IMG/VR virus record: IMGVR_UViG_3300045988_052780
Source of the DNA: a virus
Direction: 5' to 3' (one strand)
DNA length: 64,000 nucleotides
Below the pieces are notes generated by a model that had not been told where the DNA came from, made no database searches, and was given only the letters and a program-made list of their open reading frames with translations. Position 1 is the stretch's first letter; every line of letters begins with the position of its first letter. The translations under genes and the position numbers were made by a program. This document shows positions 500 to 62,519 of the stretch, piece after piece.

Positions 500-1246
500 T
501 TACACCTCACCCTCGGTAGGTGAGTGATTTATTAAGTATTCGTATTTCTTGTTCTCACTACTAACTATCTTGCCATAGATTTCTATTTCGTGTAATAGTC
601 TATTCTTGATAGCCTCTTCTTCCGTGTCATACCATTCGATTAAGGATTCTCCATCCTTCTTTATATAGCATCTCCAGCATTTACCATCTCGTCTATTAGA
701 GTGATAACTAACACCTACTACTTTACCGTAGTGTCTGTTAACTACATTTATTGCTTGAGATACTACTCTAAGATTCTCCATTCTATTGTCTAGTCTAATT
801 CCATTAATATGGTCCACTACAGTCTTAGCATCGTAACCCTCTGTTTCAGTCAGAATCTTATGAATTAGCCGCGTCTTACCATCAGTTTTAGTTACTGCGT
901 AACCTTCACTATTAATATAAATCTTAAACTGTTGTAAGAACTCTTTCTTATCTAAATCGAATATTACTTCACCAGTGATTTCACCATGTACTCCTCTACA
1001 TACACAGACATTATCTCTCCACTCATTAGCATCCTTCTGGGTGAATTGAGATATCTCTCCATGTCTATACATTTGTAAATAGTGCTTTCTACAATAATAC
1101 TGTCCATCTCCCTTAAACTTACTTACTCTACCAGTGCCATTACCGACACTAGCTCCACATATACAGCAAATTCTTTCGTTAGTCTCCATATTTATAAAGT
1201 TGTTACTTGTTTCACTTAATGAGACAAAGATACAACTTATTCCCAA
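500..1246 (-). CDS. HNH homing endonuclease (HNH_3 motif DHINGIRLDNRMENLR plus AP2-like DNA-binding domain) inserted inside nrdD
   Basis: ORF track 248 aa with the DHINGxxxDNRxxNLR HNH motif and a C-terminal AP2-like YHSNRRDGKCWRCYIKKDGE...EEEAIKNR segment. It sits between the two nrdD halves. Confidence 0.8.
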   Translation of the reverse strand: MGISCIFVSLSETSNNFINMETNERICCICGASVGNGTGRVSKFKGDGQYYCRKHYLQMYRHGEISQFTQKDANEWRDNVCVCRGVHGEITGEVIFDLDKKEFLQQFKIYINSEGYAVTKTDGKTRLIHKILTETEGYDAKTVVDHINGIRLDNRMENLRVVSQAINVVNRHYGKVVGVSYHSNRRDGKCWRCYIKKDGESLIEWYDTEEEAIKNRLLHEIEIYGKIVSSENKKYEYLINHSPTEGEV

Positions 1247-1390
1247 TAGAAACTAACTTTAATGGACATACTTAATAAACGGGAGAATACTTCAATTCTC
1301 CTCTATATGTTACCATATAGTTCCGACTATCGCATACCTTAATACATTATATTCACACATAACGTATTAAAGTCCTCTATATTTAGTCTG

Positions 1391-2518
1391 TCAGGCTGCA
1401 CACTTAACGTTGCTTGCCCCCTGTTGTCCTAATATTAGGAGTTCCAAGTCAATTAATAGAGGTTTTAATTCCCCATCGAAATTCCAAGGGAATGTAAGAA
1501 TACACTTAGTGCGTTCATTATTAAACCAAGTCATAAACTTCTTCTGTAACCAGTTCAAAGAATCCCATATGGGCTTAGTTCCATCTGGGAATACAAACTC
1601 ACCAAATAAACCTTCAAAGTAATTCTTATCAAAATAACTGATATTCCAGAATACTGATTGGAAGTTACGAGCAGCTGCTGGTTGATTGATTGAATATACA
1701 ATCTGTTGGAACTTCTGTTCAATAGTCTTATCAATATTTCTATGTTTATCAACCATCTCTTCTGGACGTTTCCAATAATCATCACCCCATTCTTTACGAG
1801 CGAAGTAATCGAAATACATTAGGAACTCACCAGTAGCTACTGCTCCAGCGAATTGTGAGCTGATAGCAAATACCAGATTAACAAACATACCGCAGAAGGA
1901 GTCCAGATTCTTAGGCTTGGCAGACAAACCTCCAATTGGCTGTAGCCCTTCAAGTAGGAACGGATACATAGTGATAGCCACGCAGTAGGGCATAATTGAT
2001 GTTTCATCATGCTTGTAAAGTTCATGAGATTCCAGTTGTCTAATATACTCCTTAGCTAAATCTTCACCATATAACTGCCTAATTTTATCTGTAAGGATTG
2101 CTCTATTAACTTTAATTACATCACCCTTAAACAACTCTCCATTTAAAGTTACTATATTCTTCTCAGTAACATTGGCATTAGCATCATATTTACTACCTGT
2201 AGCAGCATTAGATGCTTTGGCATAATCTTTAATAAACTGCTTCTTCCCAGCTAATGCTCTGAGTTCAGCTTGTTTATGTCGATACAAAATGAATGCTTTA
2301 GCGACATCATAGTAATCACAAGCCATCAAAGCCTTTTCAATTTGATCTTGAAGCTCTTCTACTGATACTATGTTGTTAATATACAATTCATCTTTAATAT
2401 CATCCAAAATATCGGAATCAATTGGTTCGTTAACAGCATTGAACGCCTTAGTAATAGCCGCGTCAATCTTATTAATATCGAAAGGTTCTACTCTCTTATT
2501 TCTTTTAATTACTAACAT
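1391..2518 (-). CDS. nrdD: anaerobic ribonucleoside-triphosphate reductase NrdD, N-terminal part (ATP-cone plus start of catalytic domain)
   Basis: N-terminal ATP-cone (MLVIKRNKRVEPFDINKIDAAITKAF...) followed by class III RNR-like sequence. The ORF ends 144 nt before the HNH start. Confidence 0.7.
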   Translation of the reverse strand: MLVIKRNKRVEPFDINKIDAAITKAFNAVNEPIDSDILDDIKDELYINNIVSVEELQDQIEKALMACDYYDVAKAFILYRHKQAELRALAGKKQFIKDYAKASNAATGSKYDANANVTEKNIVTLNGELFKGDVIKVNRAILTDKIRQLYGEDLAKEYIRQLESHELYKHDETSIMPYCVAITMYPFLLEGLQPIGGLSAKPKNLDSFCGMFVNLVFAISSQFAGAVATGEFLMYFDYFARKEWGDDYWKRPEEMVDKHRNIDKTIEQKFQQIVYSINQPAAARNFQSVFWNISYFDKNYFEGLFGEFVFPDGTKPIWDSLNWLQKKFMTWFNNERTKCILTFPWNFDGELKPLLIDLELLILGQQGASNVKCAA

Positions 2519-8058: not shown

Positions 8059-8554
8059 ATTGCTTCATAAATAGATAAGCATCGATTATCTCAGTTCTAT
8101 TTAGTGAGAATACCTTGAACATAGGGAAGTCAACAGTTCTGTCTGTATGATACAGTAGTGCTGGCACCCCAGAACGTTGACATTTGATTACATTACTTAA
8201 AGAATCATCAATAAAGACATCCACTTTACCTTTAATCATATCAGCTTTGTTACCATGCTGGTATACCATTTGATAAATTGGTCTGTCAGGAAATCCATTC
8301 CTCCTGAGCCATTCTCTAGTCCATGCCTTATTATTGACTCTCTTAGTACAATACAGCTCTGGAATAAAGTCAGGTCTATTAATAACTGGGAGATTTAACC
8401 AGAAATCTCTCTCCTTACTAAGGATCTGTTGTACATTCCTAGTAATTATATGGTCTTTAAGCATGTGAGGATTATTAGCTGTATCAAAACGCTCACAATA
8501 AGCATCCCAAAACCCAGCCAAACAATCATCTATATCTAATCCTATTCTGAACAT
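8051..8554 (-). CDS. 5'(3')-deoxyribonucleotidase, HAD superfamily (NT5C-like)
   Basis: N-terminal GLDIDDCLAGF matches the NT5C DxDxV/T catalytic motif. The 167-aa size fits the family. Confidence 0.55.
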   Translation of the reverse strand: MFRIGLDIDDCLAGFWDAYCERFDTANNPHMLKDHIITRNVQQILSKERDFWLNLPVINRPDFIPELYCTKRVNNKAWTREWLRRNGFPDRPIYQMVYQHGNKADMIKGKVDVFIDDSLSNVIKCQRSGVPALLYHTDRTVDFPMFKVFSLNRTEIIDAYLFMKQYA

Positions 8555-30806: not shown

Positions 30807-30831
30807 AATCTTTAAGTATTAATTAGTAATG

Positions 30832-31573
30832 TGGCGAGAAGGTGACTCGAACACCCAACCTTGCGATTATTTCTTTGGACGTGTGCTCTTAGCATTTAAT
30901 CGTCCGTAATTCTCAGTTAAGCTGTGACAATTTGGACACAGTAACTGTAGATTGTCTTCTGAGTTGTTGGTAGCATCACCATCTATGTGGTGAACATGAA
31001 GTGGAGGTTCTCCTGTAATCGGGTGAATCTTATCCCACCCACAAACTTGGCACTTACGTTCATGCTTATCCATGAGATAGTCCCTAATGTGTTTAGAAAT
31101 GGAACGAGTTCCACACATGCCAGTTTCTTCACCTTCCTTCCATCTTCTAATGTACTCTTTATGTTTGTACTCGGCTTGACATACGTTGTTACAGTACTTA
31201 GTAGTACTGTTATGATTGCTTAATTCTTTACCGCAATTTAAACAGACTCTAGTTACTAACTTCTTGCCCTTGTTAAAGGTTTCGTTAGCATTTATACTTC
31301 TTCGTTTAACTATGCTGATGTTAAGTCTCTTAGCAACCCTTCGTATGTTTGAGCCTGTACAGCCGTACATTCTACCAATCTCCTCATAAGACACTTTGTC
31401 TGTTAATATTAACCTTTCTAAGTTCTCTTTCTCTAAATTCCAGTCCATTTGTATAACTCTTAATTGAATTACAAATGTAATGATTTTAGATAAAGAAACC
31501 TAGGAATTCGATTCTTATTAAGAATTATTAACAGTATGAGTCGCACGCTCTAACCAGTTGAGCTATCTCGCCA
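30832..31573 (-). tRNA. tRNA-Met(CAT) split in the anticodon loop by a 667-nt intervening sequence carrying an HNH endonuclease gene (exon 1 31536..31573, exon 2 30832..30868)
   Basis: 5' half GGCGAGA TA GCTC AACTGGTTA GAGC G TGCGA CTCAT... and 3' half ...AA TCGCA AGGTT GGGTG TTCGAGT CACCT TCTCGCC A. Acceptor (7/7), anticodon stem (5/5) and T-stem pair perfectly once the halves are joined. Confidence 0.6.
30867..31448 (-). CDS. HNH homing endonuclease with N-terminal sigma-70 region-4-like HTH, inside the tRNA-Met intervening sequence
   Basis: HNH motifs CQVCGW...HVHHIDGD...NLQLLCPNCH. Paralog of 44439..45047. Its stop codon TAA abuts the exon-2 anticodon stem. Confidence 0.8.
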   Translation of the reverse strand: MDWNLEKENLERLILTDKVSYEEIGRMYGCTGSNIRRVAKRLNISIVKRRSINANETFNKGKKLVTRVCLNCGKELSNHNSTTKYCNNVCQAEYKHKEYIRRWKEGEETGMCGTRSISKHIRDYLMDKHERKCQVCGWDKIHPITGEPPLHVHHIDGDATNNSEDNLQLLCPNCHSLTENYGRLNAKSTRPKK

Positions 31574-44354: not shown

Positions 44355-44379
44355 ACATTTTTAATTATTAGTTAATAAG

Positions 44380-45197
44380 TACCCCGACTGCGATTCGAAC
44401 GCAGATATGTGGCTTAGTATAAGAACTAGGAGTCGAACCTAATTCTTATTGTTATTAATTTCATTTTTATGGTAACGGTAATAGGAACGTTCTCCACACT
44501 TGTTCTTAGACTTATAAGTATCAAGCTGTGAATCACAGTTAGGACATATGCATCGTAAATTATCTCTACGATTGTTAGATGCATGTCCGTCTATATGGTC
44601 AATGATAAAGACCAGCTCTTTACCATTCCAGATAGGCTTCATACCACATATAGCACATACTCCACCTTGCTCTTTTAGAATATCTTTCTTGAAGGCCTTA
44701 GGAGAGTAGTTAGCTCTCATTATACTTTCATCACCGTCCAAAAGCTTCTTGTAAGCAAGCATATGAGCATGTTCAAATTGACATTTAGGACCACAGTACT
44801 TGCCATAACTTCCGTTATAACTAATAAGTTCTGCACCACAGTTTAAACAGTATTTGTACTTCCTATTGAATGTTTCTTTAGGATTAATTTTACGTTTAAT
44901 TGGTAACTCTATGCCAAGTCTACGCGCTACATTCTTAATATTAGCACCTGAACAACCATATCTTCTTCCTATTTCCTCATAACTGAGCTTATCTATCAAA
45001 ATTAAATGCTCAAGTTGAGCTTTCTCGTTAATCCATTTACTTGTCATATTCGTCTAAATTAGAAATTCGTACCTCAAAGATACGAATCTTTTACGAATTA
45101 AACAAGTAAATGGATGTTTTGTTGAAATTAATAACAGTGAGTTACGGACTCACCAGCCGTATGAAGGCCACTGTTCTATCCCTTGAACTATCGAGGC
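44380..45197 (-). tRNA. tRNA split in the anticodon loop by a ~746-nt intervening sequence carrying an HNH endonuclease gene. The anticodon is TCT (Arg) or TCA (UGA-reading) depending on the exact junction (exon 1 45162..45197, exon 2 44380..44415).
   Basis: 5' half GCCTCGA TA GTTC AAGGGATA GAAC A GTGGC CTTCA... and 3' half ...AA GCCAC ATAT CTGCG TTCGAAT CGCAG TCGGGGT A. The anticodon stem GTGGC/GCCAC is perfect and the acceptor pairs 7/7 with two G:U. Confidence 0.55.
44439..45047 (-). CDS. HNH homing endonuclease with N-terminal HTH, paralog of 30867..31448, inside a tRNA intervening sequence
   Basis: CAICGM...IDHIDGH...NLRCICPNCD HNH motifs. The N-terminal 60 aa are about 60% identical to the other HNH. 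Confidence 0.8.
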   Translation of the reverse strand: MTSKWINEKAQLEHLILIDKLSYEEIGRRYGCSGANIKNVARRLGIELPIKRKINPKETFNRKYKYCLNCGAELISYNGSYGKYCGPKCQFEHAHMLAYKKLLDGDESIMRANYSPKAFKKDILKEQGGVCAICGMKPIWNGKELVFIIDHIDGHASNNRRDNLRCICPNCDSQLDTYKSKNKCGERSYYRYHKNEINNNKN

Positions 45198-48081: not shown

Positions 48082-48179
48082 ATGTCAATGGACTAATGTG
48101 AGGCGAAAGTGAAACGGTTTAATCATTAAGGTTTTAATGATTGGATCTAGTGAAACTAAACAAACATACAAATAAATCG

Positions 48180-49040
48180 TCTGGGTAGTGTGGCTCGAAC
48201 ACACGACATCTAGGTCTAGGAACTAATGCTTTAGAGATTTATCCAATCATTAGAGTTAATAGATTTAATATCTGACGTTTTGGTTGGAAGGTTGTAGCTC
48301 TTACACCACTTTCTAACAGCGTTATCTGAGACTCCAAAGTCCTTTCCAATTTGAGTAAATGGTTTAAATCTAATTAATTCTTTTAGTTGCTCTCTTGTAG
48401 GTCTCTCGACCTTCTGTGCATTCTTAGTAGCACACTCTACACATATACCATTAGCCTTAGAGACTTTGTTAGTGTTACACTGAGAACAGATATAAACTTT
48501 AGGTAAAGGCTCAGATTCCTCTGAACTCCTAACAAAAGAATTAGATACTTTATGTCCTAGCATGTTCTCTAACAGGTAATCCTCTGCTTTGTTATAAGCA
48601 CCACTGTTGTTAGCAGGTGGTTTGAGTCTTAATGTCTTGTCAGTTGAACACTCACTTACTGGAACAAGGTAAACCTTGTTATCGTAACAGGTTGCAAAGT
48701 AATCTATCTGCTCATCATCGTATCTCCTACGAATTGTCTCTTTGGTGTTGGTAGTCTGTGTGACTGTACTAAAATGAAATGCATCTAAATCTCGTACACC
48801 ATTCCTAATAGGATTACTAGACGACTTGCACTGAACTTTAAGGAGTTCATCGCCAGTATCTACTATCATGTCATATCTGGCACAATCACCATAAGGAATT
48901 GAGCAATCAAATCCCATTGACATGAATCCCATAAGGCAGGTTAGTTCTGTAATGTTACCTTTAGATTTTGTATAATCCATATGTTATACTCTAAAGTTTA
49001 GTTCCCAAACCTAGCATTCTACCTACTGAATTATACCCAG
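48180..49040 (-). tRNA. tRNA-Pro(TGG) split at the 3' side of the anticodon loop by a ~790-nt intervening sequence carrying a YraN-like endonuclease gene (exon 1 ~49003..49040, exon 2 48180..48216)
   Basis: 5' half CTGGGTA TA ATTC AGTAGGTA GAAT G CTAGG TTTGGGA and 3' half (GA) CCTAG ATGTC GTGTG TTCGAGC CACAC TACCCAG A. All stems are perfect. The intervening sequence ends with CCTAGA, duplicating the start of exon 2. Confidence 0.6.
48231..48980 (-). CDS. YraN/I-Ssp6803I-like PD-(D/E)XK homing endonuclease with C-terminal zinc-ribbon and HTH DNA-binding extension
   Basis: The N-terminus ITELTCLMGFMSMGFDCSIP...DMIVDTGDELLKVQCKSS is paralogous to 47358..47795. C-terminal CSQCN...CVEC and a DFGVSDNAVRKW HTH. 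Confidence 0.6.
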   Translation of the reverse strand: MDYTKSKGNITELTCLMGFMSMGFDCSIPYGDCARYDMIVDTGDELLKVQCKSSSNPIRNGVRDLDAFHFSTVTQTTNTKETIRRRYDDEQIDYFATCYDNKVYLVPVSECSTDKTLRLKPPANNSGAYNKAEDYLLENMLGHKVSNSFVRSSEESEPLPKVYICSQCNTNKVSKANGICVECATKNAQKVERPTREQLKELIRFKPFTQIGKDFGVSDNAVRKWCKSYNLPTKTSDIKSINSNDWINL

Positions 49041-50078: not shown

Positions 50079-50081
50079 AAG

Positions 50082-50153
50082 TGCTCCATACAGGATTCAA
50101 ACCTGTGACACGTAGGTTTAGGGTCTACTGTTCTATCGCTGAACTAATGGAGC
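50082..50153 (-). tRNA. tRNA with CUA anticodon (candidate amber-suppressor / TAG-decoding tRNA); loop is atypical (C33)
   Basis: Perfect acceptor GCTCCAT/ATGGAGC, D-arm GTTC AGCGATA GAAC, anticodon stem GTAG(A)/(C)CTAC with loop CCCTAAA, T-arm ACAGG TTTGAAT CCTGT. Confidence 0.5.
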
Positions 50154-52130: not shown

Positions 52131-52200
52131 TCAGCTAGGTGGGATTCGAACCCACACCACTTACATAATTTGTAAGTCTTCTAACTTAAATTACTAGCCT
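52131..52200 (-). ncRNA. tRNA-like element (canonical T-arm GTGGG TTCGAAT CCCAC plus 6-bp acceptor) with a non-cloverleaf body; candidate Y-RNA-like tRNA mimic or degenerate tRNA
   Basis: Minus strand is AGGCTAG TAATTTAAGTTAGAAGACTTACAAATTATGTAAGTGGTGT GGG-TTCGAAT-CCCAC CTAGCTG A. The body forms a 7-bp hairpin ACTTACA/TGTAAGT with a 5-nt loop instead of D and anticodon arms. It lies about 105 nt downstream of the vWA/Ro-like gene on the same strand. Confidence 0.4.
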
Positions 52201-54027: not shown

Positions 54028-54388
54028 CTTGTAAAATTAAATTGGCAGGTTAATCTGAGAGTTCTTTATTCTAATTGATAAAATGGGACACATAGACATC
54101 GAGCCAGCTTAATACAACTCGCTACTTACACACTACATGCCCCATATCAAATGAGGAAAGAGGTTCACTTGATGACCTATCTACGTGCTGATTATAACGT
54201 AGACCGTGCAGATTCTCTCTTACACAATACTATGATGGACTCAAACCATCTCCACCCCTAGGTGAACTTTCCGTTATTCGAATAGTACAGGTTTCAACTC
54301 TTTATAACGCCTTTAAGTCAAAGTATACTCCGGAATATACTCTTAGTTCATCAGACCAAGTTTGCGCTTAGAATTATCTAAGATTAAG

Positions 54389-62439: not shown

Positions 62440-62519
62440 TTATTAATCAGACTCCTGCATATAGCAGAAGTTTCGTCCAGTCTCATCAGTGATTATTTTA
62501 TAGACTCCTGGTTGTCTTA

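Follow-up and report, generated by a model that had tools for sequence, protein, structure and literature searches.

Introns in tRNA genes of bacteria and phages are, in the prevailing view, self-splicing group I introns, and protein-dependent splicing of tRNAs is regarded as a property of Archaea and Eukarya. Here, we analyse a split tRNA-Arg gene in 64,000 nucleotides (nt) of viral DNA, the IMG/VR record IMGVR_UViG_3300045988_052780, which in its full length is called the window in the following. The two halves of the gene lie between positions 44,380 and 45,197 and are separated by a gene for an HNH homing endonuclease. By comparison with related loci this insert contains a predicted RNA core of about 100 nt, namely a pseudoknot-type element at the 5' junction, a helix (helix H) and a tRNA-like minihelix at the 3' junction, the structure of which is conserved and the sequence of which is not.

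The nearest known kind of element is the group I intron with an open reading frame (ORF) for a homing endonuclease, as found in tRNA-Leu and tRNA-fMet of cyanobacteria, in tRNA-Ile of Azoarcus and in Patescibacteria (PMC3984707, PMC13011429). With these introns the tRNA-Arg insert shares the site in the anticodon loop, the endonuclease ORF looped out by a closing helix, the presence or absence among relatives and an ORF-less derivative, and two related loci (L156, with a homologous HNH gene, and L211) carry true group I introns at this very site. In contrast with them the tRNA-Arg insert lacks both a group I core and a terminal G and gives no Rfam match, and its core of 100 nt shows another architecture that ends in a minihelix. 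A second comparison concerns the Lak megaphages of Prevotella, for which "enigmatic" tRNA introns unclassed by Rfam were reported, one of them predicted to encode a tRNA (10.1101/356790). The Lak phages, too, are gut phages of Bacteroidota; they have large tRNA sets and recoding, and Rfam does not class their tRNA introns. The Lak introns, however, were described without anatomy or mechanism and no HNH ORF was reported; compared by description alone, they may have the same design as the tRNA-Arg insert.

Mimics of acceptor and T arm are also used as processing signals where an RNA end is needed, as in the mascRNA of MALAT1, in mitochondrial tRNA punctuation and in minihelix substrates of RNase P and RNase Z. 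There the result is the end of a transcript and not a spliced tRNA, whereas the cut predicted here would start a 3' exon that has to be ligated. Archaeal introns with a bulge-helix-bulge (BHB) motif and the split tRNAs of Nanoarchaeum depend on an endonuclease and a ligase, and a helix outside the tRNA (here helix H) unites the halves; as in Nanoarchaeum, the halves could arise from separate transcripts since the HNH gene apparently has a promoter of its own. Unlike in those systems no BHB motif can be drawn at the tRNA-Arg junctions, and no EndA-like protein is encoded in the window; to our knowledge none is known in Bacteria. A parallel to the repair of the anticodon loop in phage T4 (Pnkp and Rnl1) and to the DRB0094/Rnl5 ligases of gut phages is that a phage RNA ligase would act on a broken anticodon loop, and relatives of the window encode a DRB0094-type ligase near a CCA-adding enzyme, within 10 kb of the window end. 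In T4 damage by a host nuclease is repaired, whereas the break considered here would belong to normal maturation. Finally, free-standing homing endonucleases occur in phage tRNA clusters (SegB of T4, PMC2330249; HNH proteins of T5-like phages), and most members of the present HNH family are likewise free-standing beside tRNA-Arg(TCT), but the HNH gene of the window lies inside the tRNA and within structured RNA. The literature search brought up no tRNA intron described as having a tRNA-like minihelix at its boundary, and the strongly covarying core of the tRNA-Arg insert, which mimics a tRNA end, is previously undescribed.

All features of the locus, tRNA halves and HNH ORF alike, are carried by the minus strand. 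The parts of the tRNA gene are as follows.

45197-45164 (45163), minus strand: tRNA 5' half, GCCTCGATAGTTCAAGGGATAGAACAGTGGCCTT(C), from sequence reading and ARAGORN with introns allowed
44417-44380, minus strand: tRNA 3' half, (C)TAAGCCACATATCTGCGTTCGAATCGCAGTCGGGGTA, from sequence reading and ARAGORN with introns allowed
45164..45197, minus strand: 5' exon, tRNA nt 1-34, with the 5' strand of the acceptor stem, D arm, anticodon stem GTGGC and loop CUU
45163, minus strand: C, which is C35 of the tRNA or else begins the intron
44417..44418, minus strand: A 44418, placed like a discriminator after the minihelix, and C 44417, which is C74-like or else C35 of the tRNA
44380..44416, minus strand: 3' exon from U36, with UAA, GCCAC, variable loop ATAT, T arm, TCGGGGT and A73 (44380)

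The 5' half thus has the layout GCCTCGA-TA-GTTC-AAGGGATA-GAAC-A-GTGGC-CTT(C) and the 3' half the layout (C)TAA-GCCAC-ATAT-CTGCG-TTCGAAT-CGCAG-TCGGGGT-A; C74 follows the 3' exon at 44379, and the 3' junction lies either before or after C 44417. A preliminary description of this DNA, made from the letters alone, had paired the two halves as a tRNA around the HNH gene, and this was confirmed: the acceptor stem is paired at 7/7 positions (two of them G:U) and the anticodon stem at 5/5, and removal of the insert gives a cloverleaf with canonical tertiary positions (D-loop GGAUA with A20, T loop TTCGAAT). ARAGORN in its default mode and Rfam call no tRNA at this locus, and ARAGORN with introns allowed returns tRNA-Arg(tct) at c[44379,45197] with an intron of 746 nt. 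The exact junction had been called ambiguous as far as the window sequence goes, and indeed the intron position assigned by ARAGORN varies among relatives (34, 35 or 36). Two further statements also hold: the HNH gene is a paralog of the one that interrupts a tRNA-Met gene of the window (43% identity), and there is no other tRNA-Arg(TCT) although AGA is the dominant Arg codon (408 of 757 in the window, 54%). The array of 26 tRNA genes in the window includes no TCT, Met or Pro genes besides the split ones.

Related loci were gathered from viral and metagenome collections and by exact-protein look-ups; fetched loci are given as L with a number. Fourteen distinct variants of the split tRNA-Arg were obtained on other phage contigs, with HNH genes of 69-97% amino acid identity. 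Their halves remain complementary despite five different acceptor stems and six different anticodon stems. A split gene that recurs in 14 variants with complementary halves is not a product of chance.

The insert comprises the following features.

45136..45162, minus strand: 5' junction element of two overlapping helices, S1 and S2 (H-type pseudoknot or alternative hairpins), from covariation
45157-45162 with 45142-45147, minus strand: S1, ATACGG with CCGTAA
45149-45154 with 45136-45141, minus strand: S2, GGTGAG with CTCACT
45123..45135, minus strand: 5' strand of helix H, GTTATTAATTTCA, pairing with 44451-44463
44451..44463, minus strand: 3' strand of helix H, TGAAATTAATAAC, within the region coding for the HNH C-terminus
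44419..44449, minus strand: minihelix, 7 bp ATAAGAA/TTCTTAT on 5 bp TTAGG/CCTAG, T loop TTCGACT (44431-44437)
44439..45047, minus strand: HNH homing-endonuclease ORF, 202 aa, stop TAG, Pfam HNH_3 PF13392 (E 1e-5)
45064..45099, minus strand: palindrome AATTCGTA..TACGAATT around a TAnnTTTG box, TATCTTTG (45075-45082)

The 5' element begins directly after CTTC. In alignments fitted by hand, a procedure that favours the structure, S2 is paired at 100% over 11 variants with five of seven pairs changed on both sides, and the inner 3 bp of S1 (CRG/CYG) are always paired with an exchange between GC and AU of 7:4 in the same number of variants. The outer layers of S1 are optional; leaving them open would provide an A-rich loop 3, so that an H-type pseudoknot is sterically possible in the model. 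An intrinsic terminator after S2 was considered and rejected, its U-richness not being conserved. The 5' strand of helix H follows S2 without any spacer and the 3' strand ends 1-6 nt before the minihelix. With 8-14 bp in every variant, pairing of 100% and changes on both sides in 8/8 pairs, this helix loops out promoter and ORF, and its sequence is wholly different in each lineage (GTTATTAATTT/AAATTAATAAC in the window, ATTAAGCATC/GATGCTTAAT in L004, TCAACGTC/GACGTTGA in L073). The minihelix is paired at 98.7% over 13 variants (12/12 in the window) and nine of its 12 pairs are changed on both sides, while the T loop TTCGAnT and its two closing GC pairs are invariant. It is followed by exactly one nucleotide (A, T or C) and then by CTAA in 15/15 variants, the C after CTT being invariant as well, and it is the sole hairpin of its kind in the window. 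All wobble pairs of the core are G:U on the tRNA strand, which argues for selection on this RNA. Unconstrained minimum free energy folds (ORF trimmed, 11 variants) give the outer cloverleaf with the anticodon stem closing a multiloop; in 10/11 variants this multiloop contains helix H and the T-arm hairpin, mostly accompanied by a hairpin of S1 or S2, and eight of these folds show the complete minihelix of 12 bp.

The HNH ORF begins 115 nt past the 5' half, and its final codons overlap helix H and the minihelix. In the alignment of the HNH family, which comprises 1722 proteins at E<1e-5, many of them from contigs of 130-190 kb, the motif DHIDG...N...CPNCD is invariant. The HNH cluster P0001 has 269 member sequences, and the HNH protein encoded by IMG/VR UViG_3300045988_023864 (182.5 kb) shows 97% identity. 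The closest annotated member belongs to a Crassvirales genome, proteins of T5-like phages are about 35% identical across the HNH half, and a search of the PDB with the HNH protein gave generic HNH matches only. Upstream of the gene the arrangement TTCGTA..TAnnTTTG..TACGAA recurs in most intron-type variants and in several free-standing copies, and TAnnTTTG fits the published consensus for the -7 promoter box of Bacteroides. The palindrome is therefore probably a promoter of Bacteroidota type that belongs to the HNH gene itself, possibly with an operator.

Sister phages show three states of the same locus: an uninterrupted tRNA, the intron with the HNH gene and a mini-intron of 101 nt (L215, L218). 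The mini-intron alleles have lost the HNH ORF and no part of the core; they consist of the 5' element, helix H with a loop of 18 nt and the minihelix. These states, as read from the loci, match the life cycle of a mobile intron the endonuclease gene of which was lost. The uninterrupted tRNA-Arg(TCT) genes (L207, L208, L214, L217) have upstream and downstream flanks nearly identical to those of the window and of L001, and their difference from the exons of the window is confined to nt 26-47, i.e., anticodon arm and variable loop, which would be a typical co-conversion tract. The intron-less allele at the locus accordingly has an anticodon arm unlike that of the window, and when an intron-less allele was sought that has the anticodon arm of the window itself (GTGGCCTTCTAAGCCAC), only unrelated tRNAs came up. 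Intron-less alleles read CTTCTAA (L205 type) or TTTCTAA (L207 type). From its presence and absence at one locus together with the apparently co-converted exon flank, the insert is a mobile HNH element.

Elsewhere the HNH family is nearly always attached to tRNA-Arg(TCT). Free-standing copies lie just before or after this tRNA, e.g., in the crAss-like phage cr116_1, and other copies are nested together with a whole tRNA-Arg inside another tRNA or stand beside left-over tRNA halves. An example of nesting is L002 2585-3440, where a tRNA half is followed by a complete tRNA-Arg(TCT), the HNH gene and the other half; on the same contig a tRNA(CAT) is split by an insert of about 630 nt without an ORF (1711-2416), the 3' end of which appears group-I-like by eye and gives no Rfam hit. 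The intact tRNA-Arg(TCT) next to a free-standing HNH gene is often 85-88 nt long with a long variable arm (L023, L026, L027, L031, L041-L044, L048-L060, L063, L074); in bacteria such an arm is normally limited to tRNAs for Leu, Ser and Tyr. The 5' element and the minihelix are present at every locus where the split gene is the sole tRNA-Arg(TCT), and neither was seen by eye in the scar loci L116/L124 and L033, where an intact tRNA-Arg lies beside the HNH gene and provides the function.

A clue to the function of the minihelix comes from the 3' ends of the tRNA genes. All 26 in the window (22663-51884, minus strand) end with the discriminator and a C but no CA (C74 is encoded, C75 and A76 are not), and so do those of the relatives; judged from the genes, such N73-C74 endings imply a particular route of 3'-end maturation and a CCA-adding enzyme. 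The minihelix likewise ends with N and C, this C being that of CTAA, and as it ends like 26 of 26 tRNA genes the simplest reading is that the tRNA 3'-end machinery treats it as the end of a tRNA. We therefore propose that the insert is a mobile intron which the enzymes of tRNA end processing excise, after which an RNA ligase joins the exons, and give this a probability of roughly 0.45. Somewhat more tentative is the wider suggestion that it represents a new enzyme-dependent class of tRNA introns in Bacteria and phages, which would have no ribozyme and be bounded by tRNA-end mimics. Both the splicing and the identity of the cutting and joining enzymes are what we infer from the anatomy of the locus.

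In the proposed pathway the folded core and the tRNA stems would hold both exons together. Machinery of the RNase Z type would read the minihelix as a tRNA end and cut at the 3' junction, either after N73 or after the C, which would yield a 5' end CUAA... or UAA... that matches a 5' exon ending in ...CUU or ...CUUC, respectively. Such a cut would leave a 5'-phosphate on the 3' exon, so that a ligase for 3'-OH and 5'-phosphate ends would be needed. Some endonuclease would cut at the 5' junction beside the pseudoknot element, and the anticodon loop would then be closed to CUUCUAA by an RNA ligase of the DRB0094 type, which joins 3'-OH and 5'-phosphate ends. The predicted joined sequence over the anticodon loop is GUGGCCUUCUAAGCCAC and the joined stretch of the loop is GAACAGUGGCCUUCUAAGCCACAUAU.

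Candidate enzymes are encoded by two relatives that are 78-88% identical to the window at the nucleotide level over shared 10 kb. At most 10 kb beyond window coordinate 1 they have genes for a DNA ligase, an RNA ligase of 462 aa (phrog_968, L220 17688-19073, E 8e-41 over the full length; TIGR02306 DRB0094 on the N-terminus, E 4e-6) and a CCA-adding enzyme. A ligase of 402 aa in L220 was also considered as RNA ligase and proved to be a DNA ligase (phrog_114). In tRNA-rich gut phages of Bacteroidota, DRB0094-family ligases are reported to be enriched 140-fold and CCA-adding enzymes 250-fold, and the tRNAs of those phages rarely encode CCA (PMC10879173).

For the 5' cut RNase P was considered, with S1 and S2 as a mimic of acceptor and T arm of 12 bp. 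In S1 constant pairing is confined to the inner 3 bp, and loop 3 is too short for an S1 of 6 bp, so a helix does not reliably start at the junction, and RNase P is kept as a possibility only, and a poorly supported one. RNase III acting on the helical rods was rejected as the stagger of the junctions misfits overhangs of 2 nt. Similarly, no internal splint that pairs with the joined exons and could serve a nick-sealing ligase was found, and a BHB motif, with two bulges of 3 nt on either side of a helix of 4 bp, could be fitted by hand to none of the junctions 34/35, 35/36 and 37/38 of the Arg and Pro introns. None of the 85 ORFs of the window encodes an EndA-like splicing endonuclease.

Several points weigh against this enzymatic excision. 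No enzyme or structure accounts for the 5' cut, and the 5' junction is unlike an RNase P site, position +1 being C or A/U and not G and the invariant part of S1 amounting to 3 bp. Pfam searches of all 85 ORFs of the window revealed no RNA ligase, RtcB, PNK or EndA; the ligase was found in the relatives and not in the 64 kb of the window. Ligases of the DRB0094 type are known as sealers of nicks in duplexes and not of anticodon loops. The split Met and Pro genes of the window lack a minihelix, and the mechanism would leave them unexplained. The covariation comes from alignments the manual fitting of which favours the structure, and the joined tRNA-Arg product is one that we infer. Some copies are decayed: the mini-intron of L215 has a deletion of 1 nt in the T loop of the exon, and the 3' exon of L019/L100 is truncated. 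Finally, a random deletion of 645 nt would spare the core with p ~0.18, which makes the mini-intron weak evidence by itself.

The first rival explanation, which we regard as unlikely, is a dead gene. According to it the insertion of the HNH gene broke the tRNA-Arg gene and there is no splicing; the intact look of both halves would come from recent invasion or from refreshment of the exons by homing, and the RNA helices would serve the selfish element by stabilizing its mRNA, controlling HNH translation or processing the message. The HNH family indeed occupies a rearrangement hot spot with intact-looking tRNA fragments (L116, L033, L023, L040, L123), no bacterial mechanism for the removal of such an insert is known, and the three split tRNA genes of the phage, of which two contain next to no non-coding RNA, may all be casualties of homing endonucleases; the decay in L215 and L019/L100 and the weakness of the mini-intron as evidence fit this as well. 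A dead gene hardly explains, however, why the structures are placed exactly at both junctions with invariant spacing and only where the HNH gene has no intact tRNA-Arg beside it, or why the exon stems have remained complementary in 14 variants with five acceptor and six anticodon stems. Helix H joins the ends of the intron, which would be needless in an element for message stability, and the pseudoknot element lies upstream of the HNH promoter and thus outside the transcript of the HNH gene itself. In addition, a T loop of canonical form and the ending N73-C74 suggest that tRNA enzymes recognize the element.

Rather improbable in our judgement is a new small ribozyme, i.e., that the core of 100 nt splices itself or cleaves itself at one or both junctions with subsequent RtcB-like ligation. 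As in mobile ribozymes, the fold is compact and strongly covarying with an ORF in a terminal loop, it occupies a group I site together with a homologous HNH gene, and an ORF-less version persists. Similar gut phages use small ribozymes near tRNAs, the theta ribozymes (PMC10879173), and the topology of S1 and S2 resembles P1 and P2 and recalls folds like that of the hepatitis delta virus (HDV) ribozyme. In L215, from a close relative of the window's phage, an HDV-like hit (RF02682, 37 bits, below the gathering threshold) was detected at 8296-8359 on the minus strand, within about 80 nt of a tRNA gene at 8442-8513, a proximity that would fit the theta-ribozyme pattern. In the core, by contrast, conserved unpaired nucleotides are almost absent except for exon bases, one A and the T loop, the linkers at the junctions are variable (1-6 nt between helix H and minihelix), and the best-conserved part is a canonical tRNA T arm, a target of proteins and RNase P. 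An HDV-like or theta ribozyme was rejected because P3/L3, P1.1 and the strand with the catalytic C are missing, with 0-2 nt where P3 and P4 would be due; hammerhead, twister, pistol and hatchet ribozymes were rejected for incomplete topology. There was no Rfam ribozyme hit for any of these between 44200 and 45400, even at E<=10.

The preliminary description had left open whether the anticodon is TCT or TCA and had linked the latter to recoding of stop codons. In that case the mature tRNA, with a junction at 36/37, would have the anticodon UCA and read UGA. The sequence of the window by itself would permit CTTCA+AA, and a suppressor tRNA with anticodon CUA (called tRNA-Pyl by ARAGORN; 50081-50153, minus strand) lies 5 kb away. 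The related loci argue otherwise. On the 3' side all variants have the minihelix, one base, CTAA and the stem, so that the invariant CT of CTAA would need to be intronic in a UGA reader. On the 5' side CTTCA is found in the variants closest to the window and CTTCT in the remainder, and in the five variants with CTTCT the anticodon TCA is impossible at any junction. Moreover, the difference between A and T tracks the lineage of the HNH gene and intron rather than the tRNA body: L021 (A) and L022 (T) have acceptor and T arms in common, L020 (A) and L022 (T) share the anticodon stem, and L021 and L102 have nearly identical introns in different tRNA bodies. The group I introns at the same site in L156 (57.8 bits) and L211 (57.1 bits; RF00028, Rfam) both show CTT|...G|CTAA, the former preceded by a homologous HNH gene and the latter in a tRNA body equal to that of the window. 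These two alleles fix the end of the 5' exon at CTT. By this comparison the junction is 34/35 or 35/36, and either way the anticodon is UCU.

TGA is moreover a normal stop codon that ends 22 of the 85 window ORFs, and reading TGA or TAG as sense does not lengthen the minus-strand ORFs of the window beyond noise, the late genes lying outside the window. Taken together with the uninterrupted alleles, which also give UCU, and with the AGA codons that need a decoder, this leads us to reject the UGA reading, now very improbable, and with it the link to recoding; the anticodon of the tRNA-Arg is, on comparative evidence, UCU and not UCA. A distant relative of the HNH gene stands directly downstream of an uninterrupted tRNA(TCA) with the loop CTTCAAA (L097 1095-1168; 51% identity of the HNH), which is the third argument that could be raised for a UGA reader. 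Apparently the partners of the HNH family include a UGA-reading tRNA in one phage or more. As regards TAG, it is the stop of 9 of the 85 ORFs, and the HNH ORF of L156 has TAG codons in frame, which suggests that some phages of the group read TAG as sense.

The preliminary description further suggested two hairpins before the HNH gene as ribozyme elements and a search with group I covariance models. Both hairpins exist, but GTGAGT/ACTCAC is helix S2 of the 5' element and the palindrome brackets the promoter-like box, hence they are not group I elements. With RF00028 of Rfam there is no match in the insert, neither at the gathering threshold nor at E<=10, and none in the variants L021, L008, L028 and L073, whereas L156 and L211, as positive controls, exceed the gathering threshold. 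In 15 variants the intron ends with A, T or C (with C for a junction at 35/36) and never with G, in contrast with the introns of L211, L156 and L125, which do end in G. Non-coding RNA in the insert amounts to about 140 nt (115 nt upstream and about 22 nt downstream of the ORF) and to 101 nt in the ORF-less allele, half the smallest group I cores, so there is no room for the catalytic core P3-P9 of at least ~150-200 nt. On inspection no variant showed a guide sequence that would pair with the end of the exon, and the motif ATAGTC (similar to J8/7-P7 and present in L115, L118, L125 and L156) was not noticed on reading the intron, without a systematic search for it. Thus, although site and homologous HNH gene are those of true group I introns in relatives and U34 is present and could act as the U of P1 at the 5' splice site, an ordinary self-splicing group I intron with an HNH ORF is next to excluded, and by these comparisons the tRNA-Arg insert is not one.

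The phage is probably a gut phage that infects Bacteroidota and is distantly crAss-like. Its replicative helicase shares about 30% identity with the helicases of crAss-like phages, the sole close hit in bacterial assemblies is a contig of 163 kb binned with Bacteroides, and no close relative of the window was found among GenBank phages. Two other tRNA genes of the window are split as well. The Met(CAT) gene (30831-31572, minus strand) is interrupted by the paralogous HNH ORF of 193 aa, whose stop TAA abuts the 3' exon; its insert has 87 nt of 5' non-coding RNA, gives no group I match and contains neither a minihelix nor a clear closing helix. In the relative L178 an intact tRNA-Met, absent from the window, is placed between the CUA suppressor and tRNA-Ile. 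A third split gene, Pro(TGG) at 48179-49040 (minus strand), had not been listed in the preliminary description and was found by ARAGORN with introns allowed. Its insert of 788 nt is almost entirely a PD-(D/E)XK ORF (PF11645, which we take to be the family of I-Ssp6803I) with only about 25 and 17 nt of non-coding RNA. The anticodon loop TTTGGG pairs with the 3' end of this intron (..GTTCCTAGA) in a helix of 12 bp plus 8 bp (CTTTAGAG/CTCTAAAG); the insert leaves no space for a ribozyme and lacks a minihelix. For the HNH gene of the Met intron and the nuclease of the Pro intron the viral collection contained too few diverse loci for a comparison of junction structures.

Further features of the window include two Rfam hits above the gathering threshold, RAGATH-34 RNA (54284-54381, minus strand, 86.9 bits) and a RAGATH-1 hammerhead ribozyme (62445-62518, minus strand, 82.6 bits), and a tRNA at 52131-52200 (minus strand) that has 40.6 bits with Rfam and is not called by ARAGORN. 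The gene for the anaerobic ribonucleotide reductase NrdD is split (500-2518, minus strand; L220 8672-11732): the N-terminal part lies at 1391-2518 and an HNH_3 ORF at 500-1189, and in relatives the C-terminal part is found beyond the window. This interruption is probably another intron or an intein with a homing endonuclease. Among 63 smaller ORFs scanned there are a second PDDEXK_5, a GIY-YIG/SegE-like and another HNH_3 gene, and the window is by these assignments unusually rich in genes of homing-endonuclease type.

For the analysis of phage genomes the locus has two direct consequences. A false lead was removed, as there is by this comparison no UGA-reading tRNA at the split tRNA-Arg gene, and since default tRNA finders miss Arg-UCU, Met and Pro here, phage tRNA repertoires and the arguments on codon usage built on them are incomplete. 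In general, a mobile HNH element at a classic group I site appears to possess a scaffold of 100 nt with a tRNA-end mimic in place of a ribozyme. If it is spliced, this would be a new way for a selfish element to spare its host gene and would give a function to the RNA ligases and CCA-adding enzymes of tRNA-rich gut phages. Protein-dependent tRNA splicing would then exist outside Archaea and Eukarya, and this could explain both the "enigmatic" introns of the Lak phages and the enrichment of DRB0094 ligases.

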